A stretch of DNA of 64,000 nt from an uncultured delta proteobacterium (GTDB taxonomy: Bacteria; Desulfobacterota; Desulfomonilia; UBA1062). Positions 3,898 through 15,239 of this stretch are shown here, one piece after another. Both the position numbers and the translations under genes were made by a program. Numbering within the stretch: position 1 is the stretch's first letter; each line of letters starts with the position of its first letter. The stretch lies in assembly GCA_963785235.1 (NCBI GenBank), contig CAWAUM010000005.1:352001-416000 (forward strand). Reading direction: 5' to 3'. The notes beneath the pieces are model-generated. The model saw only the letters and a program-made list of their open reading frames with translations. It was not told the origin of the DNA and searched no databases.

Positions 3898-5166
3898 GTG
3901 CAGCCAATGATTGATAGCATGCCCCATCTGGTTTTTGCAGACTGCAATGGCAGCATAATGGATTTTCCAGGACTCGCTATGCTGGGCCGCAGCGGGGATT
4001 ATTTCCTGCCTGTAACTGAACCGGATACAATCCCTTTACCCAAAGGGGCGCAACTCTATGTGCTCCCAGACAGGCACCCAATAGGGTTGGACCGCGAAAC
4101 AGGTGAGATCGTTATCCTGAAGGATAATCCCTATGATGGTTCATGCCCCATTTATGCCGTTGCCGCCTTTCTTCCGGCAGCCCATACACAGACATATATT
4201 GCTGCATGGGAGCGCTCACAAAGTGCCTCTGAACTCCCCTTGTTCGCCTACACCGCCCTGGGCTGGAATGACGGCTTCGTGACCACAGCGATGCGTACAG
4301 ACCTATCCCGAAGGCAGGACCCTGACATGTTCGACCAGGAAAAGGTGAGGAAAGGGGTTACGCAATGGAAGGCCGATTTTCCACAAAACAGACTTGTCGA
4401 GCACCTCAGCAACTGCGCCTTGTGTTATGGATGTCCGGCAGCGCTCAATCTCTTCCAGGGAAGAGAGGAGGCCCCCCTGCCCACATCGCCTTCATGTAAT
4501 GCCTCCTGTGTGGGGTGCATATCAAAACAGGGCAGTGATAGACCTCCTTCGCCCCAGGACCGCATCCGTTTCGTACCGAGCTCCGAAGAAATCTCAGAAG
4601 TTGCCTTAAAACATATAGACTCAGTCTTGGACCCTGTTGTGAGCTTTGGCCAGGGGTGCGAGGGCGAGCCGCTCATGGTAGCCGACACCATAAGAGATGC
4701 AATAGTGCTTATCAGGAAAAAGACATCTCGCGGTACAATAAATCTGAACACCAATGCGAGCCTGCCTCAGAAGGTTGCAGAGCTTGCCGATGCAGGGCTT
4801 GACAGTATGCGTATCAGCATGAACTCACCAAGGGAAAACACCTATAAAGCCTATTTCCGGCAAACGTACCCCTTTGAAGCCCTGGCCATGAGTGCCTTGG
4901 AGATGAAAAAAAGGAACCGTTTTGTATCTTTGAATCTGTTCGTGTTCCCCGGCCTCACGGATGCCCCGAAAGAGGTAGAGTCACTGAGACGTTTCATCGA
5001 CTCTACCGGCATAGACATGATCCAGTGGCGCAATCTCAATATGGACCCCGATGTATACCTGGAAAAAATTGGTCAGAAACTCCCTTCGGGTATCGGCATC
5101 AAGCCACTCATCGAGAGCATCCCGCTGAGAAGGGGTTATTTCAATCCGTATTTAGGTGCGAAATAA
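3898..5166 (+). CDS. Radical SAM protein of unknown function
   Basis: CNASCVGC (CX3CX2C), SFGQGCEGEP, LNTN; extra CALCYGC upstream. Confidence 0.88.
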   Translation: MQPMIDSMPHLVFADCNGSIMDFPGLAMLGRSGDYFLPVTEPDTIPLPKGAQLYVLPDRHPIGLDRETGEIVILKDNPYDGSCPIYAVAAFLPAAHTQTYIAAWERSQSASELPLFAYTALGWNDGFVTTAMRTDLSRRQDPDMFDQEKVRKGVTQWKADFPQNRLVEHLSNCALCYGCPAALNLFQGREEAPLPTSPSCNASCVGCISKQGSDRPPSPQDRIRFVPSSEEISEVALKHIDSVLDPVVSFGQGCEGEPLMVADTIRDAIVLIRKKTSRGTINLNTNASLPQKVAELADAGLDSMRISMNSPRENTYKAYFRQTYPFEALAMSALEMKKRNRFVSLNLFVFPGLTDAPKEVESLRRFIDSTGIDMIQWRNLNMDPDVYLEKIGQKLPSGIGIKPLIESIPLRRGYFNPYLGAK

Positions 5167-5169
5167 CAC

Positions 5170-6855
5170 TCAGAACTCCACAAACCCGCCACCGGCATCC
5201 TCCTCATCTGCCTGGATTTCAGTGGTGCTCGCCTCTTCCCAGAATTCCAGCAGCATGACCGTGAAGTCGTCATCAAGGGCCTCTTTGCAGTTAAACGACC
5301 GTACGTCTGCCTCTATAACCTCAATGACCGCGTTTCCCCGCATGGTCTGGATAGCGTTATGGAAGCACTGGATCAGCCTATCCTTGCCGTACTGCTCAGC
5401 TTGATCGTTCTCGGTCTCCAGGATACAGTCAGTGTACATGAGCAGTGCATCGCCTATCTCTATGTTGTTCTCACATTTTTCTTCATATCCTCCATCCTCA
5501 AAGGAACCGAGGAAGAAACCGTCTGTATCGAGTTCAAGGATCTTTCCCGTGGCTCTCTTAAAAAGCAGCGGGGTAGGGTGGCCTGCATTGGAGTAGGTGA
5601 TGGACTTGGCATGACGGTCTGTTAATACAAAGAACGCTGTTATGTAGTCCTCATCCAGCACGGGTTTCAGTTCACCGTTGAGCATGTGCATGAGAATTGT
5701 AGGGCTTGCCACGGTCGCGGCCAGGGCGTGAAAGCTCATCTTGAACATGGAAGAGATAAGGGCGGCAGCCACGCCATGGCCGGAGACATCGGCAATAATA
5801 AAACCCGTCTGACCGCCTCCCAGGTTGACGACATCGTAAAGGTCCCCTCCGATATGGATTGAAGGGATATATTTACAGGTAAAGCTCACCCCATTCATGT
5901 TTTCAAACGTATCCGGCAACAGACTCTTCTGGAGCCTGGCAGCCATTTCGAGCTCATCGATCATCCGTTGGTTCTGTGCACGGATGATCTCATTTTTCTC
6001 CTCCATCCCAGCCAGTGTAATAGTGAGATGAGCCGCCTGCTCCTCCATGAGGTCTTTGGTCTCTGCACTCTCCATGAGAAGCCGTTCCATGTCATCTTTC
6101 TGTCTGACGGACTCTGTCACGTCGGTAAAGAGAATAGCCGTATACTTGCCGCCTCCCTTAGGTTCAACCGTGTGTGTGGTTTTTTCAAGATAACGCTGAT
6201 CAAAATCGCCAAGATCAAGGGTTATTTGTTTATCTTTTGGTGAGAACAGGTTCTTAACGATTTCGGGGACGTTGTCCATAGTTTTCCCCAGGACGTCTGA
6301 AGACTTGATGGATGTTATTTTTTGAGCCGTTTTATTCCAGAGTATGACCTCGCTTTTATCAGAGATGACAAGGAGGCCTGATGGAAATGATTTTAAGAGC
6401 TGTACGATGAATTCGTCACGAATAATACGTGCAGGGGTCCATTGCTTTGACTTGCTTACCTTGTTTTTCCGGTATACGAGTCGCACACTGTTTCCACTTC
6501 CTTCGTATCTTACCTCATTGAAAAAGGTCTTGGCTATCTGAATACCAAGGCCGCTGCCTATGTGGGCATTGGGGTCAGGGTTAAATTCTTTTTTATAATC
6601 AAAACCTTCACCCTCGTCTATGACATGATACTCTAAAGAGTTCTGGTCCATGTGGATATGAAGAGTTACCATCCGCTCGACATATTTTGGACTATTGATT
6701 CTCTGCTTAACCAGGTCTTCAAATGAGCCCTTTTTAACTGCCTTTGCCTTTTCCTCCATGGTGATACCCAGGTTGCCATGTTCTATTGAATTGAGAACGA
6801 TTTCTCCGAGTCGCCATCTTGAGCATCTCAGTATCTTCACAGACCCTTCTTGCAT
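5170..6855 (-). CDS. C-terminal part (HATPase_c anti-sigma kinase + PAS + coiled coil + SpoIIE/PP2C phosphatase) of a frameshifted multidomain gene
   Basis: EIVLNSIEHGN, DEGEGF, GLGI; GGDLYD, ADVSGHG, NAGHP, YTD, DDDFT; true reading frame joins the upstream ORF at about 6811. Confidence 0.88.
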   Translation of the reverse strand: MQEGSVKILRCSRWRLGEIVLNSIEHGNLGITMEEKAKAVKKGSFEDLVKQRINSPKYVERMVTLHIHMDQNSLEYHVIDEGEGFDYKKEFNPDPNAHIGSGLGIQIAKTFFNEVRYEGSGNSVRLVYRKNKVSKSKQWTPARIIRDEFIVQLLKSFPSGLLVISDKSEVILWNKTAQKITSIKSSDVLGKTMDNVPEIVKNLFSPKDKQITLDLGDFDQRYLEKTTHTVEPKGGGKYTAILFTDVTESVRQKDDMERLLMESAETKDLMEEQAAHLTITLAGMEEKNEIIRAQNQRMIDELEMAARLQKSLLPDTFENMNGVSFTCKYIPSIHIGGDLYDVVNLGGGQTGFIIADVSGHGVAAALISSMFKMSFHALAATVASPTILMHMLNGELKPVLDEDYITAFFVLTDRHAKSITYSNAGHPTPLLFKRATGKILELDTDGFFLGSFEDGGYEEKCENNIEIGDALLMYTDCILETENDQAEQYGKDRLIQCFHNAIQTMRGNAVIEVIEADVRSFNCKEALDDDFTVMLLEFWEEASTTEIQADEEDAGGGFVEF

Positions 6856-7339
6856 TTAGTACAGCCTGATTTATGATATAAGGGATTCTCTCAGGATCAT
6901 TCCCGAAGACAAGGGTTTTATCTTCGCTGATAACACTGTGGCCATCAGGCTCAATGCCCAGGCAGAGAAACCGCTGATGATTCAGTACCCGCTGTATCGA
7001 TTCAAGGAGTGCTGTTATGTTTATTGGTTTGATAAGATAATCCAAGACCCCAAGTCTCATACATTGAAGGGCTAAAAAACCATCGACTTTTTCTGATGAG
7101 ACAATAACCATGGATTTAGGACTGGCCTGGGATATCTGGGTCAGGACCGTGAGACCTGATTCATCAGCAGGGTCTACTGACAGGATAACAAGATCTGGTT
7201 TATCCTGAATGACCTTTGCTATTCCATCATCCGGAGAAAAGGCAAACTTGGCATTAAACCCTTTTCGGGAAAGCTTTTTGACAAGGTCCCGTGAAGCCCT
7301 GTCCGGATCAATGATAAGTACATTCTGAATCAACTTCAT
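6734..7339 (-). CDS. N-terminal atypical receiver domain of the same gene (frameshift at about 6811)
   Basis: VLIIDPD...PDLVILS...DYLIKP receiver fold; removing one base gives EMLKMA-LGEIVLNSIEHGN. Confidence 0.8.
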   Translation of the reverse strand: MKLIQNVLIIDPDRASRDLVKKLSRKGFNAKFAFSPDDGIAKVIQDKPDLVILSVDPADESGLTVLTQISQASPKSMVIVSSEKVDGFLALQCMRLGVLDYLIKPINITALLESIQRVLNHQRFLCLGIEPDGHSVISEDKTLVFGNDPERIPYIINQAVLNARRVCEDTEMLKMATRRNRSQFNRTWQPGYHHGGKGKGS

Positions 7340-7385: not shown

Positions 7386-8465
7386 TCATGATCCTTTATC
7401 ATGCTTGCTCAAGTTCATGATAAATCCGGGTATCGATAGCAATGGGAGGACTTTGGCAACACCCCCCATCTCGATGGCAACCTTGGGCATGCCGAAAACA
7501 ACGCAGCTGTCTTCATCCTGTGCAATGGTGAATGCACCTGCTTGTTTCATCTCGCGCATGCCGCGTGCCCCGTCATCACCCATGCCGGTGAGGATGATGC
7601 CCAGGGCGTTAGGTCCAAGGGTATTGGCTGCTGACCTGAACAATACATCAACGGAAGGTATATGTCGGTTAACAGGCGGCCCATCCTTTACCCTTACAAA
7701 GTAGCCCTTTGGGCCCTTGTTTACAATCATGTGCTTACCTCCGGGTGCAATAAGGGCAAGACCTGTTCTGAGCTCATCGTTGTCTTTTGCCTCAACGACG
7801 GTCATAGCTGATAATCCATTCACTCTCTTGGCAAAAGAGTTTGTAAATACCGGAGGCATATGCTGCACGATTAATGTTGGCGGCGCATTTGCCGGGAGCT
7901 TGTTGAGAATCTGCTCAAGTGCCACTGTTCCTCCAGTGGAGGCACCGATAACAAAAATCGGCTGACCATCAATAACTGGCGCGGACTTCTCGGCCTTTAT
8001 TATTACATCCATGCCCAGCTTTGGAGGGACCTCAAGATTTGTAGGCGCGACAGCCTTTTTCAGCTTGGCAGTAGAGGCAGCCTTGACTTTTGAGCAGAGG
8101 TCTATCCTCAGATCCTCGATGCCTTCACTGATTTTGATCCTGGGCTTTGTCATGAAATCAATGGCGCCCAGGGACAGGGCCTTCATTGTGGCGTCTGCGC
8201 CCTGTTCGGTGAGAGATGAAAACATTACAACAGGCATGGGGAATGATCGCATGAGCCTTGAGAGGAAGGTCAGACCGTCCATCTTTGGCATCTCGATATC
8301 AAGGGTAAGCACATCGGGCTTAAGATCTTTAATCTTTCGTATGGCAATCAGCGGGTCAGGGGCAGTACCGACAATCTCGATATGAGGGTCTGACTCGAGG
8401 ATATCCTTCAGAAGCTTTCTCACAAGTGCCGAATCATCAATGATGAGTACTTTTACTTTATCCAT
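7386..8465 (-). CDS. cheB: Chemotaxis response regulator protein-glutamate methylesterase
   Basis: REC plus GASTGG, QHMP, PSVDVLF, LTGMGDDGA. Confidence 0.97.
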   Translation of the reverse strand: MDKVKVLIIDDSALVRKLLKDILESDPHIEIVGTAPDPLIAIRKIKDLKPDVLTLDIEMPKMDGLTFLSRLMRSFPMPVVMFSSLTEQGADATMKALSLGAIDFMTKPRIKISEGIEDLRIDLCSKVKAASTAKLKKAVAPTNLEVPPKLGMDVIIKAEKSAPVIDGQPIFVIGASTGGTVALEQILNKLPANAPPTLIVQHMPPVFTNSFAKRVNGLSAMTVVEAKDNDELRTGLALIAPGGKHMIVNKGPKGYFVRVKDGPPVNRHIPSVDVLFRSAANTLGPNALGIILTGMGDDGARGMREMKQAGAFTIAQDEDSCVVFGMPKVAIEMGGVAKVLPLLSIPGFIMNLSKHDKGS

Positions 8466-8475
8466 ATTCGTCTCA

Positions 8476-9069
8476 TTAGAAGATCGTTAGTTCTCCACCC
8501 TCAACCTGAAGCTTTTCCTTTTCATGGAAAAGCTTTGTCTTATATGCCTGCTCTGCTTCAATGATTTTAGAGTCTACCGTTGACTTGAGTCTCTTGAGAA
8601 GGACCTTGCCGGTGTCGGGAAAGAAGAGGACCTTTCTCCCGGTATACCCACCTACATCCTCCTTTATGATCTCTATCTGTTCCATCTTTAAGAAAGCCCT
8701 TACAAAATCGATGTTTGATTCAGGAACATTACCGTCAGTCTTTCTGAAATTCAATACATGTCCGCCCCCGAACACCTTTGCCTGAAAGTGTTTCTGTAAT
8801 CCACCCCGTTTGAGCATATCATTAATAAGCTGCTCCATGGCGAACATACCGTACTTTGCAGATGCCGAGAGGAAAATGTCCTCGGAACGGACATCACCGG
8901 GCAGCATGAAGTGGTTCATACCGCCGATGCCAGTCTTAGTATCCTTTATACAAACAGAGATACAGGAACCTAAGACCGTAGCAATGACATCGTTCGGGCT
9001 CACATAGAATTCCCCGGGATAGATGATCACCATGGTGCGGTTGAATTTCGGGCTGTGCTTTTTATACAT
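8476..9069 (-). CDS. cheD: Chemoreceptor glutamine deamidase
   Basis: TVLGSCISVC, GGMNHFMLP, AKVFGG, EDVGG. Confidence 0.95.
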   Translation of the reverse strand: MYKKHSPKFNRTMVIIYPGEFYVSPNDVIATVLGSCISVCIKDTKTGIGGMNHFMLPGDVRSEDIFLSASAKYGMFAMEQLINDMLKRGGLQKHFQAKVFGGGHVLNFRKTDGNVPESNIDFVRAFLKMEQIEIIKEDVGGYTGRKVLFFPDTGKVLLKRLKSTVDSKIIEAEQAYKTKLFHEKEKLQVEGGELTIF

Positions 9070-9070
9070 G

Positions 9071-9916
9071 CTACACCTTTATGTAAACAGTATGTTTAAG
9101 AAACTTGAAGAGGTGCTTCATGTACATGAGAGACTCCGAGTGTCCGACAAACATATAGCCCATATCACTGAGATGATTGTGATATTTTTTTACAAGATCC
9201 TTTCTGGTTTCTTCATCAAAATAGATCATCACATTCCTGCAGAATATGATGTCAAAGGGTTTTTTCATGGGGAATGAAGGGTCCATAAGGTTAAGCTTCC
9301 TGAAGGCGATCATGGCTTTAATCTGTGGGCTTACCTCGTAACCTTGAGATGTCCTGACAAAATATTTCGACAGATAATCTATGGGCACCGGTGTAATCTG
9401 CTGGCTTGAATAGACACCTTTGGCTGCCTTCATAAGGATATCCGTATCAAGGTCCGTAGCGAGGATCTTCAGGTCCCAGCCTCGTTCGTCCTTGAAGAAA
9501 TCAGAAACTGTCATGGCGATGCTGTAGGGTTCTTCTCCGGAAGAACATCCGGCGGACCATATCCTTAATCGTCTCATTCCACTTTTTCTTGCCGTATCGA
9601 TAAAAGAAGGGAAGATCTCGTTTACCAAAAAGTCAAAATGATGTTTTTCTCGAAAAAAGTCCGTTTTATTCGTAGTGATTCGGTTGATGAGGTTATTGAG
9701 TTCATCCGATGCATTCGAGCTTGTATTGAGGTATTCGTAATACTCGGAAAAATTTGAAAGATTAAGTGCCCTGAGTCTCTTTGAAAGACGTGCGACAACC
9801 AGGTTCCTCTTCTTTTCGGTCATCTGGATGCCGGTTTGACGGTAAATGATGTCCTGAAAGAGGTGGAATTCCTTTTCTGTGATGGAGAATGATTGTGCGC
9901 ACAGTGTCGGTGTCAT
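9071..9916 (-). CDS. cheR: Chemotaxis protein methyltransferase
   Basis: TTNKTDFFRE, IWSAGCSSGEEPYS, IFCRNVMIYFD, GHSESL. Confidence 0.97.
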   Translation of the reverse strand: MTPTLCAQSFSITEKEFHLFQDIIYRQTGIQMTEKKRNLVVARLSKRLRALNLSNFSEYYEYLNTSSNASDELNNLINRITTNKTDFFREKHHFDFLVNEIFPSFIDTARKSGMRRLRIWSAGCSSGEEPYSIAMTVSDFFKDERGWDLKILATDLDTDILMKAAKGVYSSQQITPVPIDYLSKYFVRTSQGYEVSPQIKAMIAFRKLNLMDPSFPMKKPFDIIFCRNVMIYFDEETRKDLVKKYHNHLSDMGYMFVGHSESLMYMKHLFKFLKHTVYIKV

Positions 9917-10404
9917 ACACCATCGACCATATTCAACTCGTTATCCGAGAGCAGTTTGTCTACATTCAGGAGGATGATGAATTTTTTATCTTTGATTCCC
10001 ATCCCGGAGATGAATTCAGTGCTGATCCCTGTAGAAAAATGAGGCCGTGGTTTGATATCTTCACTGTTCAGTGTAAGGACATCGCTTACCGCATCCACCA
10101 CTAGCCCCATAATCCTGCCTGACACATCAAGGATCATGATGACGGTAAACTGATCGTATTCCTTCAGTTCCATGCTGAATCTTTCCCTAAGATCAATGAC
10201 AGGCACCACGATACCCCTGAGATTAAGCACACCCTTAATGAAACTCGGTACATTCGGTATAGTTGTACAGCTCTGGTATGCAATAATCTCATTAAGCTTG
10301 AGGATGGATATACCATAGGTTTCCGCCCCCAGCTGGAAGGTTACAAACTGGTTGGTCAGCTTCTTTTCCGTATCATTTGTTTTTGAAATAGGTTCACTTT
10401 TCAT
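9913..10404 (-). CDS. cheW: Chemotaxis coupling protein
   Basis: GVLNLRGIVVPVIDLR, GLVVDAVSDV. Confidence 0.96.
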   Translation of the reverse strand: MKSEPISKTNDTEKKLTNQFVTFQLGAETYGISILKLNEIIAYQSCTTIPNVPSFIKGVLNLRGIVVPVIDLRERFSMELKEYDQFTVIMILDVSGRIMGLVVDAVSDVLTLNSEDIKPRPHFSTGISTEFISGMGIKDKKFIILLNVDKLLSDNELNMVDGV

Positions 10405-12044
10405 TAGAATTCCTCAAAATCATCTTCGAAATCTGTAGCGGCCGGCTTTATGGGCGAAGCTTTTGCTTTAACAGGCTGCTGTTTTTTCACGACGCTTTTT
10501 TTACCCTTGGATGTCTTCTCATCCTTAGATACCTTGAACCGTGCTACGGTTTCGGAAAGGTCATTGGCCTCGTTACTGAGGTTGTCCGAGGTACTCGCAA
10601 GCTCCTCTACCGTGGATGCATTCTGCTGGGTAGTGGTATCGATCTGTGAAACAGCACGGTTCAGCTCGTCCACACCGCTCGCCTGCTCGCTGCTTGCCGC
10701 TGCTATCTCCTCCATAACCTGAGAGAGGTCCTGGATGTGTTTTATGATCAGATCGAGAGACTCGCCTGATTTTTTTACCATGATGTCTCCGGCACTTATC
10801 TTCCCCACCGTGTCTTCGATCAAGGCCTTGATCTGACGTGATGCATCGGCCGACCTCTGAGCCAAAGCCCTTACTTCTTCGGCCACAACAGCGAATCCCT
10901 TGCCGTGTTCTCCCGCTCTTGCAGCCTCAACTGCTGCGTTTAGGGCCAAAAGGTTGGTCTGGAAGGCCACCTCGTTGACCGTGACGATGATGTCACCGAT
11001 CTTCTTGGATGCCGCTGATATCTCACTCATGCCCCTGACAAGCTCTTGAGCGGCATCGCCGCTTTGAGAGGCCATGCGCACCATGTCGGAAGCCTTCTGG
11101 CGGCCGTCGGTTGCATTCTCTGCATTGTGTTTGATGGACGAGGTCATCTGTTCGATGGTTGCAGCAACTTCCTCGATGGCGGACGCCTGCTCCTGAGTTG
11201 CCTGAGAGAGACCCTGTGCCCCTGCCGAAACCTCCTGTGTGGCTGTGCCTACCTGTATTGAAGAGTGTTTCACCTTAGTGATCACCTCTTCTAGGTTCCC
11301 TACAAAGGTATTGAACCAGGATGCGATCTCACCAATCTCATCGGTAGAAACCACAGGAAGCCTTTTTGAAAGGTCGGCCTCACCCTGGGCGATATCCATC
11401 ATGCTGGCGGAAATATCCCTTGCCCTCCGGGCGATCTTGCCCGCTACTACGGCTCCGATTAAAGCCACAACCAAGCAAGAGACAAAAAGGAATATATACA
11501 TCTGGATCTGCATGGAGCGGACATTGGCAAGTATCTCAGTAGAAGGTACACCAGCCCACAGGACCCAGTTTAAAGGCTTGACATGGGCCAGATAACTTAT
11601 CTTGTCAACGCCATCGAAGGAATACTTGTTTACGCCTTGCTTCTGGTTAACTGCTTTGCGTACCCAGTCATAGGTGTCATAGAGGGTCTTGTTGTTACGG
11701 AATTCGGCCTTGGGATGGTAGATGCAAGTACCATCAGGGGCGAAAATTGCAAGGTAGCCCGTCTCGAAGTACTTCTCTTTTGACGCCTCGTTGATGAGGT
11801 CGGTCTTGAGGGACTTCATGAGCTGATCCTTGATGATATCAAGGTTACCCTCGATGGATGCACTACGAACCTCAGCCATCCTGGCAAAGGATTCAACCTT
11901 AACTTTCAGGTAGTCGAGAGCTTGCTTTTGCATGAAGCTGCTGGTGCTGATACCAACATAGATGATAGCGGCAAGAAGCGGAATCAGACCGGAGCAAACG
12001 ACAAGGGCAATCAGCCGACCTCGGAGTTTCCATTTGAGCGCCAT
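10404..12044 (-). CDS. Methyl-accepting chemotaxis protein (Cache sensor, HAMP, C-terminal pentapeptide DFEEF)
   Basis: Two TM segments, HAMP, hairpin QTNLLALNAAVEAARAGEHGKGFAVVAEEVR. Confidence 0.96.
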   Translation of the reverse strand: MALKWKLRGRLIALVVCSGLIPLLAAIIYVGISTSSFMQKQALDYLKVKVESFARMAEVRSASIEGNLDIIKDQLMKSLKTDLINEASKEKYFETGYLAIFAPDGTCIYHPKAEFRNNKTLYDTYDWVRKAVNQKQGVNKYSFDGVDKISYLAHVKPLNWVLWAGVPSTEILANVRSMQIQMYIFLFVSCLVVALIGAVVAGKIARRARDISASMMDIAQGEADLSKRLPVVSTDEIGEIASWFNTFVGNLEEVITKVKHSSIQVGTATQEVSAGAQGLSQATQEQASAIEEVAATIEQMTSSIKHNAENATDGRQKASDMVRMASQSGDAAQELVRGMSEISAASKKIGDIIVTVNEVAFQTNLLALNAAVEAARAGEHGKGFAVVAEEVRALAQRSADASRQIKALIEDTVGKISAGDIMVKKSGESLDLIIKHIQDLSQVMEEIAAASSEQASGVDELNRAVSQIDTTTQQNASTVEELASTSDNLSNEANDLSETVARFKVSKDEKTSKGKKSVVKKQQPVKAKASPIKPAATDFEDDFEEF

Positions 12045-12155: not shown

Positions 12156-14246
12156 TTAACGGAACGCCATACGCTCAATACTATATACGTCTAAAATCAA
12201 TGAAACCTTGCCATTGCCGAGAATCGTGGCCCCGGATGTGCCCTCGATCTTTTTGAAATTCTTATCAATGCTCTTGACAACAGCCTGCATCTGACCGAGC
12301 ACGTCATCAACCAGGATGCCGAACCTGTTCTGCTCGCCATGAAGGACGACCACAAGGGCCTCGGTAGGGTCTATCTTGACGGAAGGGAGGTTAAAGAGCT
12401 GATAGAGGCGGACCAGAGGGAGGTAGTCCCCTCTGATATCAACAAGCTCGCCTTTTCCTTCAACGGTCTTGATCTCGGCCTTTGATGGACGCACAGATTT
12501 ATCTATAACAGAAAGTGGAATAGTCAGTACTTCAGTGCCCACCTTTACCATCATGCCGTCTATGATGGCCAGCGTCAAAGGTAGCTTGATCCTGAATCTG
12601 GAACCGTTGCCTTCCTCTGAAGTGATTTCGACGCTGCCCCTGAGGTCCTCTATATTCCTTTTCACAACGTCCATGCCGACGCCCCTGCCCGAGAGTTCGC
12701 TGACATTTTCAGAAGTGGAAAGGCCCGGGGCAAAGAGCATATCGAAGATCTCCTTGTCGGAATATGACTTGCCGGACTCGGCCTGACCCTTTTCAATAGC
12801 CTTGGCCAGTACCCTTTTCTTGTCTATGCCTTTGCCGTCATCTGATATTTCGATATAGATGTTACCCTCGCGCTGAAATGCCTTAAGCCAAATGGTACCG
12901 ATCTCAGACTTTCCGATCCGGCGCCTTTCTTCAGGCATTTCAATGCCATGGTCTATTGAATTTCGGATCATGTGTTTTAAGGGATCACTAATCTGTTCTA
13001 TAACGTTTTTATCCAGCTCGGTCTCGGTCCCTGACATTTTGATTTCAATCTTCTTTCCCAACTCGAAAGAAAGGTCCCTGACCACCCTGCGGAAGCGGTT
13101 AAACGTGCCTTCCACCGGGACCATACGGACCCGCATGACCTGCTCCTGAAGATCACGCGAGATGCGCTCAAGGGCTGATATGGCGCCTTGCAATGATCGT
13201 GAAAGTGCCGTATCCGCAATATCGCTGGCACATTGTGACATACGGGCAACAGATATAACCATCTCGCCAACAAGATTAACAAGCTTATCAAGCTTGTCCG
13301 TATCGACCCTGATAGTGGAAGATTTGGCGATCTTCCTGCTCTGGGATTGGGCCAGGGCCATTTTCTCCACAGCATCCCGTGATACCTTGCCCTTTTCCAC
13401 AAGGGCCTGACCTGTGGTCTTATGTTCCATGAGGGCTTCTTCGACATCATTCTGAGTGACAAGGCCCTTTTCTACAAGGATCTCACCGATGGGTTTTTCC
13501 GCAAGCGAGAGGTCAATGCCCTCTTTATATTGAGATGATATATCGGCAACTGAAATCTCGTTTTCATCCATAACAAAGATGAAGACATTGTTGACATCGG
13601 AAACGGGACGATTCGTCCGCATTATGATATCCCATGATGTGTAACATGTAGTAGGAACAAGATTGTATAAGTCCGGAATGGCATCAACATAAACCCGTGA
13701 TTCGATAATTTCTCCAAGATCTTTCAATTCCTGGATAAGCATAATGGGGTCTTGACCTGTTGCGAGGATGTCAGGCCTGAATTTCATCATGACTGAAATT
13801 ATCTTTTCTCCTGACATATCTTTCAATTTCGACAGTTCACCTTGGGTATCACCAGCGGATTTTGCAGCCCTGGAAAAACGTTTGAGTGACTGTATAGACT
13901 GCTCAATCTCTTTTTCATCTATCTCTTCACCATCACTGCCGGCTGCAATCATACGCTTCAAAAAGTCAACCGAGGCAAGCATCGTGGAAATGAGCTTTTT
14001 CGTGATGGTCAGGTCCTTTTTGCGAATCCTGTCGAGGATATTTTCTAGGGTATGGGTATAAATGCTGACACTGTCGAATCCTACAAGACCTGCAGACCCT
14101 TTTATCGTATGGGCTGCTCGAAAGACCCTGTTGATTGTGTCTTCATCATTTTTATCTTCTTCGAGCCTGATGAGACCGGATTCCAGCTCACGAATCTCAT
14201 CCTCACTCTCTTCCATGAATACCTTGACTAATTCATCCATTGCCAT
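12156..14246 (-). CDS. cheA: Chemotaxis histidine kinase
   Basis: Hpt FRAAHTIKG, IRVDTDKLDKLVNLVGE, HMIRNSIDHG, SGRGVGMDVV, CheW domain. Confidence 0.97.
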   Translation of the reverse strand: MAMDELVKVFMEESEDEIRELESGLIRLEEDKNDEDTINRVFRAAHTIKGSAGLVGFDSVSIYTHTLENILDRIRKKDLTITKKLISTMLASVDFLKRMIAAGSDGEEIDEKEIEQSIQSLKRFSRAAKSAGDTQGELSKLKDMSGEKIISVMMKFRPDILATGQDPIMLIQELKDLGEIIESRVYVDAIPDLYNLVPTTCYTSWDIIMRTNRPVSDVNNVFIFVMDENEISVADISSQYKEGIDLSLAEKPIGEILVEKGLVTQNDVEEALMEHKTTGQALVEKGKVSRDAVEKMALAQSQSRKIAKSSTIRVDTDKLDKLVNLVGEMVISVARMSQCASDIADTALSRSLQGAISALERISRDLQEQVMRVRMVPVEGTFNRFRRVVRDLSFELGKKIEIKMSGTETELDKNVIEQISDPLKHMIRNSIDHGIEMPEERRRIGKSEIGTIWLKAFQREGNIYIEISDDGKGIDKKRVLAKAIEKGQAESGKSYSDKEIFDMLFAPGLSTSENVSELSGRGVGMDVVKRNIEDLRGSVEITSEEGNGSRFRIKLPLTLAIIDGMMVKVGTEVLTIPLSVIDKSVRPSKAEIKTVEGKGELVDIRGDYLPLVRLYQLFNLPSVKIDPTEALVVVLHGEQNRFGILVDDVLGQMQAVVKSIDKNFKKIEGTSGATILGNGKVSLILDVYSIERMAFR

Positions 14247-14254
14247 GGTTAGGT

Positions 14255-14632
14255 TTACCTCATGAATTTTTTTGTGACATATACAAGCTGCTCCGGTTTA
14301 AAAGGTTTAACGAGCCAGCCGGAAGCCCCTGCCTGCTTGCCCTTAAGCTTCATATCATCCTGTGACTCGGTGGTGAGAACAAGGATTGGTAAAAATTTAA
14401 AAGGCGTCTTTTTAACTTCCTTGATGAAGGTGATCCCATCCATAATCGGCATGTTAATGTCACTGATGATCATTCCGATCTGGTCACCTTGCTTGTGGGC
14501 TTCAGTAAGCTTCTCTAACCCATCGGCCCCATTGACGGCGTTGATTGTCTCAAATCCAGCTGATTTCAGTGTATAATTTACCGATGCCCGCAGTGTTGCA
14601 GAATCATCGACCACAAGGATCTTCTTTTTCAT
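14255..14632 (-). CDS. cheY: CheY-like response regulator
   Basis: VVDDS, SDINMP, LTTES, WLVKPF. Confidence 0.92.
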   Translation of the reverse strand: MKKKILVVDDSATLRASVNYTLKSAGFETINAVNGADGLEKLTEAHKQGDQIGMIISDINMPIMDGITFIKEVKKTPFKFLPILVLTTESQDDMKLKGKQAGASGWLVKPFKPEQLVYVTKKFMR

Positions 14633-14934
14633 GGGAGGGTCTCCTTCAAGGGAACATTAAACCCCGAGAGGTCGATGATATCTCTGATGGATTGGTTTAT
14701 CGCAAGTATGTGCAACGCTCCATCGTTCTCAAAGGTCTTCTTGAGAGAATACAGGAGTTGCAGGCCTGCAATATCAATTTCATCCACCTGGCTGAGGTCA
14801 AGGGTAATATTCCGTGAGGAATCCTCAAGAAAAGACTCGATTTCAGAATGTATCGACTCTATGTTTGTTACAACAAGATTGCCCTTGAGGATAATTGTTC
14901 CCTGGTCATCAGTACTAATTTCCATCTTTCTCAC
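14629..14934 (-). CDS. STAS-domain protein
   Basis: LDLSQVDEIDIAGLQLL. Confidence 0.88.
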   Translation of the reverse strand: MRKMEISTDDQGTIILKGNLVVTNIESIHSEIESFLEDSSRNITLDLSQVDEIDIAGLQLLYSLKKTFENDGALHILAINQSIRDIIDLSGFNVPLKETLP

Positions 14935-15239
14935 CTCATGGATATGGGAAAGAGCTTGTCCAGTTTCACTGCCTTGAAAATGTTATAGAGGTTTTCATGG
15001 ATTCCTTTAATCTCGAAACCCGCCTTTGCGCTGTCAAGACTTTTAAAGAACATGAGTATCTTGCCGATGCCGGAAGATCCCATGGTGGGAACCATTGAGA
15101 GGTCCATAACTACTTTTTTCGGTCTCTGGCCGGCAATCTTATTCAGCTCAGACCTGAGTATCTCCGCAGCGCCGGTATCTACAGCACCGGAAACCTTAAC
15201 AATCAAGGTATCACCATTAACTTTTGTTGCCACATCCAT
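14931..15239 (-). CDS. STAS-domain anti-sigma factor antagonist
   Basis: MDLSMVPTMGSSGIG with the phospho-acceptor Ser position; AAGGAGG RBS. Confidence 0.88.
   Translation of the reverse strand: MDVATKVNGDTLIVKVSGAVDTGAAEILRSELNKIAGQRPKKVVMDLSMVPTMGSSGIGKILMFFKSLDSAKAGFEIKGIHENLYNIFKAVKLDKLFPISMR

Follow-up and report, generated by a model that had tools for sequence, protein, structure and literature searches.

The 64,000-nucleotide stretch of DNA analysed here (the window) comes from an uncultured Desulfomonilia bacterium (assembly GCA_963785235.1, contig CAWAUM010000005.1, positions 352,001 to 416,000) and carries on its minus strand a chemosensory (che) operon whose last gene encodes a phosphatase of the PP2C/SpoIIE type. 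The larger part of that gene is an open reading frame (ORF) of 561 aa at 5170-6855, in which Pfam recognises HATPase_c_2, PAS and SpoIIE domains and which ends in ...LLEFWEEASTTEIQADEEDAGGGFVEF, followed directly by the stop codon. The last five residues, GFVEF (residues 557-561, 5173-5187, with the TGA stop at 5170-5172), come after ...WEEASTTEIQADEEDAGG and have the form of the C-terminal pentapeptides that serve as tethers on chemoreceptors. Judged by sequence comparison, this tail is a real, selected and clade-specific motif of the chemoreceptor-tether type, placed on an output phosphatase. The pentapeptide is separated from the end of the PP2C domain (...LLEF) by a variable linker (5188..5241), acidic in composition and predicted to be disordered, with a predicted local distance difference test (pLDDT) score below 50. 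Upstream are the PP2C/SpoIIE domain itself (5242..5817, residues 347-538; Pfam PF07228, E 1e-39, above the cut-off), a long helix linking PAS to PP2C (5926..6117, residues 247-310 in the AlphaFold2, AF2, model), which holds EEQAAHLTITLAGMEE (5998-6045, residues 271-286), and the PAS domain (6121..6411; Pfam PF00989, E 4.7e-5, residues 149-193, with the AF2 fold extending to about residue 245). All of these features, like the other operon genes described below, are on the minus strand. An earlier interpretation made from the letters of this DNA alone (the sequence-only reading) had drawn attention to the tail and the helix; re-translation of the window showed its strings and coordinates for the phosphatase and for the operon's methyl-accepting chemotaxis protein (MCP) to be exact, and its placing of the phosphatase at the end of the che operon agrees with the Pfam gene content and with a convergent radical-SAM gene that ends at 5166.

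The MCP of the same operon (10404..12044; Cache and HAMP domains in Pfam) ends in ...ATDFEDDFEEF, with the pentapeptide DFEEF at 10407-10421 behind a linker of about 40 aa, and carries QEQASAIEEVAATIEQ at 11148-11195. The proposed likeness between the two proteins, an acidic linker followed by an xFxxF ending, held at the coordinates given for it, and it extends to 94 homologs. In a search of 5.8 billion proteins, 120 relatives of the phosphatase were listed, the 94 closest (P0004-P0097) and 26 more distant. A tail of the form xF[VIE][EDS]F ends 93 of the 94 closest homologs and also P0100, that is, 94 of the 120 listed; the sole exception among the closest, P0088, has an aberrant C-terminus, and in the other 25 of the 26 more distant relatives the protein stops right after the PP2C domain, with no such tail. 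The endings found are GFVEF (60 sequences), EFEEF (18), GFIEF (10) and six variants seen once each, and the GF[VI]EF and EFEEF types correspond to two clades. The phenylalanines at positions 2 and 5 are invariant in the tail-bearing homologs and the glutamate at position 4 is nearly so. The linker in front of them is 16-24 aa long (median 19) in the 94 sequences, with 27% D+E and 4% K+R, and has a pairwise identity of only about 16%. A short linear docking motif is typically recognised by such a combination, a terminal motif that does not vary behind a spacer that is hypervariable, and this pattern indicates that the last five residues of the phosphatase are under purifying selection. The MCPs of the orthologous operons all end in xFEEF, so that in the subclade of EFEEF phosphatases the phosphatase and MCP tails of the same operon are nearly alike. 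Many orthologous operons (L004, L007, L079-L081, L084, L086, L142) encode a tandem pair of MCPs, both copies ending in xFEEF, compared with the single MCP in the window.

The tail is also confined to this group of phosphatases. Among the best 150 representatives of 1.84 billion clusters at 50% identity, only five have it and all five belong to this clade, directly past which the score falls from 466 to 330 bits; in more distant SpoIIE ORFs the tail was found in 0 of 90 (81 loci). In the genome of the window a Z..Z ending (Z being F, W or Y in the pattern xZxxZ) closes 24 of about 4000 genes called by a crude procedure, and an acidic linker together with such an ending occurs there only in three MCPs (DFEEF, DFEQY and DFEKY) and in the phosphatase. 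In the retrieved loci of tail-bearing sequences, 35 of 38 distinct sequences have a CheB ortholog upstream in the same orientation, and the remaining three (L006, L012 and L014) end upstream too early for the linkage to be judged; the whole che operon is present in the same order wherever there is enough flanking DNA. Within this search the tail is thus confined to the che-embedded clade, which is a single orthologous group. The linkage persists across four architectures of the protein: a fused form of about 720 aa, a REC-kinase protein of about 298 aa with a PAS-PP2C protein of about 420 aa, a kinase of about 180 aa with a REC-PAS-PP2C protein of 552 aa, and a kinase-PAS-PP2C protein of 598 aa. 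These natural splits fall at domain boundaries that differ by lineage (L007-L011, L079-L088, L115-L138) and include a kinase-PAS-PP2C form without REC; the tail is present in all of them.

On chemoreceptors, pentapeptides concentrate CheR and CheB locally and contribute to the separation of parallel pathways. To our knowledge such tethers have been described on MCPs only, and a chemoreceptor-type tail on a protein that is not a receptor would be new. We found none among the matches listed in our searches of published main texts; the supplementary tables of PMC7184735 may bear on the question. The statement of the sequence-only reading that it knew of no described example stands to this extent for the pentapeptide and needs qualifying for the helix, since methylation of a helix in a non-receptor protein has been published for RsbK and RsbM (PMC4574943). 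Pentapeptides are described as an xZxxZ ending behind an unstructured linker, mostly with negative charge, in which the aromatic residues at positions 2 and 5 are decisive (PMC7390727). The tail of the phosphatase, an xZxxZ ending behind a flexible, poorly conserved linker, agrees with this anatomy, and with the C-terminal position, negative charge and unstructured linker of the tethers on Tar and Tsr (NWETF), on Pseudomonas aeruginosa McpB/Aer2 (GWEEF) and on the Geobacter class 34H MCPs (EFEKF) (PMC7390727, PMC2577667, PMC7184735); like these, it is encoded in a che cluster together with CheR and CheB. It differs from them in that its carrier is a PP2C phosphatase and not an MCP, so that it sits behind a SpoIIE/PP2C domain instead of an MCP signalling (MA) domain, and in the length of its linker, about 19 aa as against about 35 in Tar and Tsr and about 40 in the operon's own MCP.

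The rest of the operon suggests what the phosphatase might do. At the head of the operon are two genes for STAS proteins of the anti-sigma-factor-antagonist kind (14931-15239 and 14629-14934, both Pfam PF01740), which score 52.5 and 36.0 bits with NCBIfam TIGR00377, both under its cut-off of 53.45 bits. They are followed by a CheY-like receiver (14255..14632; PF00072), CheA (12156..14246; Hpt, H-kinase_dim, HATPase_c and CheW domains in Pfam), the MCP, whose signalling domain scores highest with models of the Aer2/Tsr type, all under their cut-offs, CheW (9913..10404; PF01584), CheR (9071..9916; PF01739 and PF03705), CheD (8476..9069; PF03975) and CheB (7386..8465; PF01339 and PF00072), and then by the phosphatase gene. 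A SpoIIE/PP2C domain with a helical linker before it, STAS proteins and an RsbW/RsbT-like kinase alongside are all present, as expected of a partner-switch phosphatase. The phosphatase would then provide the output of a chemosensory pathway that does not serve motility, and most likely it would act as a partner switch on the products of the two STAS genes at the operon head, which are likely to be the substrates of both kinase and phosphatase. Two further STAS genes lie outside the window on the same contig (C5:160288-160593 and C5:566584-566889), and the protein encoded by each is 71% identical to that of the first STAS gene in the operon.

All binding partners and functional consequences named here are ones that we infer. 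The tail is disordered, with pLDDT below 50, in AF2 models of both the window ORF and the intact ortholog P0004; neither of these two monomer models predicts docking in cis, which we set aside for that reason. Since the strictly conserved tail of the MCP needs some reader, CheR, CheB or both are the parsimonious partners of a tail of the same type on the phosphatase. Complex prediction of the operon CheR with phosphatase residues 532-561, made with our own alignments, gave an interaction prediction score from aligned errors (ipSAE) of 0.40 (0.42, 0.39 and 0.40 in the individual runs), compared with 0.02 for the best of three controls, with contacts agreeing in at least 42% between runs and a partner pLDDT of at least 38. 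In the calibration of the tool, 58 of 80 solved complexes passed the mark used, as did 2 of 110 mismatched pairs, and the range of scores up to 0.60 holds 7 of the 80 solved complexes and both mismatches that passed; as the complex of CheR with NWETF has been solved (1BC5), the pass may also reflect the memory of the model. Modelling CheR with the tail peptide, as the sequence-only reading had proposed, thus lends weak support to docking of the tail on the operon CheR. Most likely, the tail of the phosphatase would dock the same partner as the tail of the receptor, namely the operon's CheR and/or CheB, and in this way the output phosphatase would be physically coupled to the adaptation machinery, or would compete for it. 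The combination that we favour, a tail that docks CheR and/or CheB and a helix that is a generic linker, comes in our judgement a little short of an even chance.

Several observations weigh against this combination. The first concerns the enzyme itself. The pentapeptide contacts of Salmonella CheR are Q182, R187, G188, G190, G194 and R197 (PMC2577667), and a long beta-loop with R197 has been linked to pentapeptide binding and a short loop to non-binding (PMC5907407); bioRxiv 10.1101/2024.03.07.583918, searched by term for criteria on the beta-subdomain, contained none of the terms. The beta-subdomain loop of the operon CheR is four residues shorter than that of Salmonella CheR in the alignment to 1af7/1bc5, only R187 of the six contact residues is kept, and the loop is short in all 17 orthologs compared, so that by alignment the operon CheR is without the published signature of a pentapeptide binder and in this respect unlike the CheR of pentapeptide-dependent systems; the CheR of the other che cluster of the genome, where the MCP ends in DFEQY, does have a long loop (...RSKDPKNKTVRV...) and an equivalent of R197. 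The docking result on this CheR, as said, lends weak support. In the second place, one lineage does without the tail: the same operon, with an MCP ending in DEFEEF, is present in genus g2 (G071, G072; P0098/P0099), but the phosphatase of this genus stops at ...ALLIEF, with neither linker nor tail. Third, all tail-bearing genes belong to one orthologous group within one Desulfomonilia family (f1, with a match in 43 of 51 genomes), the sister family having distant PP2Cs only, and because tail and che linkage were inherited together, finding the two in the same loci carries no independent statistical weight. The g2 loci (L141, on G072:C44, and L112, in G071) amount to a natural deletion of the tail and could be used for comparison.

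The rules on the long loop and R197 derive from W-type pentapeptides, and the tail in the window is of the F type; for F-type EFEKF tails, pairing with a distinct group of Geobacter CheR has been proposed (PMC2577667), and pentapeptide-binding CheB has no known sequence signature (PMC7698151). Taken together, the proposal that the tail is a tether keeps a selected motif confined to a che-linked clade, of the same type as that of the MCP and with a weak docking result, and lacks a CheR with the signature of a binder.

An alternative that deserves more weight than the others, although we regard it as rather unlikely, is that the tail docks some other partner (the STAS proteins, CheA, CheW or CheY, the separate REC-kinase half or a second phosphatase subunit) and that it came to resemble the MCP tail by convergence. 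Motifs that combine acidic and aromatic residues at the C-terminus are common, the protein is split in many genomes so that its halves must interact, and the monomer models are compatible with docking in trans within a dimer; the missing long beta-loop and R197 of the operon CheR, and a docking score that is weak and possibly a memory of 1BC5, would also be accounted for. However, the fused forms, which have no separate half to dock, keep the tail, and the residues that do not vary, F2, F5 and an acidic position 4, are those decisive for pentapeptide binding (PMC7390727). Moreover, only MCPs share an acidic linker and such an ending in this genome, and one subclade has phosphatase tails (EFEEF) nearly identical to the xFEEF tails of the MCPs in the same operons.

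The sequence-only reading had gone further than a docking site: it had aligned the helix before the phosphatase domain with the methylation helix of the MCP, and had suggested that the protein may be a substrate or scaffold of CheR, CheB and CheD. In the full form of this model these enzymes, tethered by the tail, would modify glutamates and glutamines of the helix (MEEQAA ... [DE]EK), the neutralisation of charge tuning the coiled coil and with it the phosphatase activity. The helix certainly is conserved. The pattern ETKDLMEEQAA.L...LAE[VM][DE]EKN.II is nearly invariant within the clade, and in 37 sequences compared at its polar positions, D268, E271, Q273 and A274 never vary and E272 and A275 show at least 90% conservation, a degree of conservation equal to that of the catalytic core and above that of the PAS domain. 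The AF2 model has a single long helix over residues 247-310, and its hydrophobic spacing reads as heptads. Near-invariance at polar positions is not required by the packing of a plain coiled coil, which speaks for some added function such as modification, and so do the spacing of E272 and E286, 14 residues apart and by their sequence on the same helical face, and a linker of about 19 residues, which may be long enough for a tethered enzyme to act on the helix. A precedent also exists in Bacillus cereus, where RsbM methylates a signalling helix of RsbK upstream of the PP2C/sigma-B partner switch (PMC4574943).

The resemblance to the MCP is less convincing. The strings that had been placed in register are exact, but the alignment to the first methylation helix of the MCP is not above chance, being only the second hhalign hit, with E 0.42. 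The best profile match, to the second methylation helix (MCP 425-482), has a score of 23.3, P 0.0065 and a probability of 5.8%, with aligned cores MEEIAA...GVDELN (MCP) and MEEQAA...EVDEKN (phosphatase); no full column shuffle out of 150 scored as high, and 1 of 150 shuffles that preserve heptads did. By this comparison the two helices, both acidic coiled coils, resemble each other weakly, which does not constitute evidence of homology.

The distribution of the motif goes against a che-specific role. Of the 25 tail-less relatives in which the start of the PP2C domain can be recognised, 6 have EEQ[AS] in the register seen here, 38 residues ahead of the Q of Q..LLP; four of the six (P0101, P0103, P0105 and P0107) are outside the clade, and a related hE.Q[AS] occurs at that register in several more; the distant locus L030 has the helix motif and no che genes. 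Tail and helix can be separated both ways: the tail-less, che-linked orthologs of genus g2 keep MEEQAG, with DK at the second putative site, and the che-linked L011 (10356-11669) and P0100 keep a tail, GFVSF, with a Gly/Pro-rich stretch in place of the helix segment, a loss seen in two separate sequences in which the other frames are closed, so that no frameshift is involved. The helix is thus not specific to che-linked, tail-bearing copies, which was the criterion that the sequence-only reading had set for it.

Methylation sites of MCPs follow the consensus [ASTG]2-x2-[EQ]2-x2-[ASTG]2. The helix, read as KD-LM-EE-QA-AK, matches one of its four flanking positions, the second pair (AG-M-EE-KN-EI) fails it as well, and no interchange of E and Q at the candidate sites was seen across 93 homologs. 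With a motif that is present in tail-less and che-less relatives and decayed where the tail is kept, the claim of a methylation helix is not supported, and we consider it improbable that tethered CheR, CheB and CheD modify this helix. That the tail is a true non-receptor tether and that these enzymes covalently modify the phosphatase, whether at the helix or elsewhere, seems to us no less doubtful.

The so-called methylation helix is best read, from its distribution and pattern, as the regulatory coiled-coil linker of the phosphatase. Coiled-coil linkers N-terminal to PPM domains relay signals from PAS, REC and other sensors (eLife 2025, PMC12143880), and the junction between sensor and linker is where partner proteins attach, the RsbW-like kinase RsbT among them (PMC12143880). 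Since an RsbT/RsbW-like kinase domain is fused or adjacent to this phosphatase, a conserved docking surface on the linker would be expected. The helix would then be a linker of the kind general to bacterial PP2C phosphatases and not a chemoreceptor-like methylation site. Because the acidic coiled-coil linkers of PP2C phosphatases resemble 'methylation helices', caution is called for before the latter are named from sequence alone.

That the tail is functionless and resembles that of the MCP by chance, as the chance frequency of xZxxZ endings (about 0.6%, or 24 genes of some 4000) and one lineage without a tail might suggest, is very hard to reconcile with 94 homologs, down to about 44% overall identity, whose last residues remain F-x-[ED]-F although the preceding linker is only about 16% identical.

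We return to the reading of the tail as a dock for CheR and/or CheB on an output phosphatase, for which comparison with known systems provides some context. A similar set of genes has been described as the 'stage 1 F7' cluster, with an anti-sigma antagonist, cheY, cheA, cheW, aer2, cheR, cheD, cheB and a serine phosphatase (PMC7184735), and the che1 locus of Shewanella oneidensis contains CrsR/CrsA (PMC9855816). The window operon resembles them in having STAS, cheY, cheA, cheW, an Aer2/Tsr-like MCP, cheR, cheD, cheB and a serine phosphatase or anti-sigma regulator, and differs from stage 1 F7 in gene order and copy numbers: cheW is present once, the two STAS genes are both 5'-terminal, and an mcpA-like gene is missing. 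Those systems are gammaproteobacterial, whereas the operon described here is from Desulfomonilia, and the text of PMC7184735 and PMC9855816 that was compared does not mention a pentapeptide on the phosphatase. Five control genomes were reported to match the SpoIIE family, none of them a Vibrio, Pseudomonas or Shewanella. The domain order of the protein is REC-kinase-PAS-PP2C in the operon studied here. CrsR, by comparison, has the order receiver-phosphatase-kinase.

Phosphatases of the RsbU/RsbP type are also similar, with PAS, a long helix and PPM, STAS substrates and an associated RsbT/RsbW-like kinase (PMC12143880); unlike them, the phosphatase in the window has its kinase and receiver domains fused or adjacent, an input from CheA and the C-terminal tail. 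RsbK and RsbM provide a parallel to methylation of the helix, in that a methyl-accepting helix outside the chemoreceptors controls a PP2C/STAS/sigma partner switch. The substrate there is a histidine kinase, RsbM is an orphan with no paired esterase and the available text describes no pentapeptide tether (PMC4574943), and in contrast to that system methylation is unsupported by comparative data in the present one.

If the tail does act as a tether, this would be a second, unreported use of the device, on the output phosphatase of the pathway. It could recruit adaptation enzymes to the output, or sequester them there, and would make a direct link between adaptation and a partner switch by which gene expression is presumably controlled. 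Should the phosphatase also be modified, methylation would act directly on the chemosensory output and not only on the receptor.

The gene of the phosphatase is interrupted in the window, where it consists of two ORFs in different frames that overlap, one with the REC domain at 6734-7339 and the remainder at 5170-6855, and with domains in the order REC, HATPase_c_2, PAS and SpoIIE across both (Pfam). The receiver domain lies at 6995..7321 (PF00072, E 4.8e-15) and the RsbW/RsbT-like HATPase_c_2 serine kinase domain at 6475..6910 (PF13581, E 1.7e-9, from profile position 36), its first part being encoded in the frame of the REC ORF. The single REC-HATPase-PAS-SpoIIE protein described by the sequence-only reading is therefore correct in its domains and not a single open frame in the window, one extra base at 6810..6812 separating the two parts. 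Homologs are single proteins of 720-722 aa that read ...EDTDMLKMALGEIVLNAIEHGNLG..., with ...LKMALGEIVLN... uninterrupted, where the window shifts frame. We aligned public contigs from close relatives to positions 6400-7300 for this question only; the best public sequencing run contained at most 43% of the sampled words of the window, and no RNA data set was listed for the stretch. One base, at 6810 or 6812, is absent from all four public contigs that cover the site (three runs from three studies), one of which is 99% identical over 347 bases. The simplest reading is that the extra base is an assembly indel specific to this assembly; a programmed or genuine frameshift was rejected as the main explanation, given nearly identical contigs without the base and two other genes that are split too. 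The tail and the helix, which are C-terminal to the site, are not affected.

The two other split genes, both outside the window, are a CheA of 499 + 227 aa (C1:254485-256597) and an MCP of 437 + 159 aa (C5:493529-495218), which suggests several indel errors in the assembly. The former is part of the second che cluster of the genome (C1:254485-264417), with a long-loop, Salmonella-like CheR and an MCP ending in DFEQY; the third MCP of the genome, which ends in DFEKY, adjoins a CheW (C5:492908-495218). In all, three MCPs of the genome carry tails, and its CheR loops are of two kinds.

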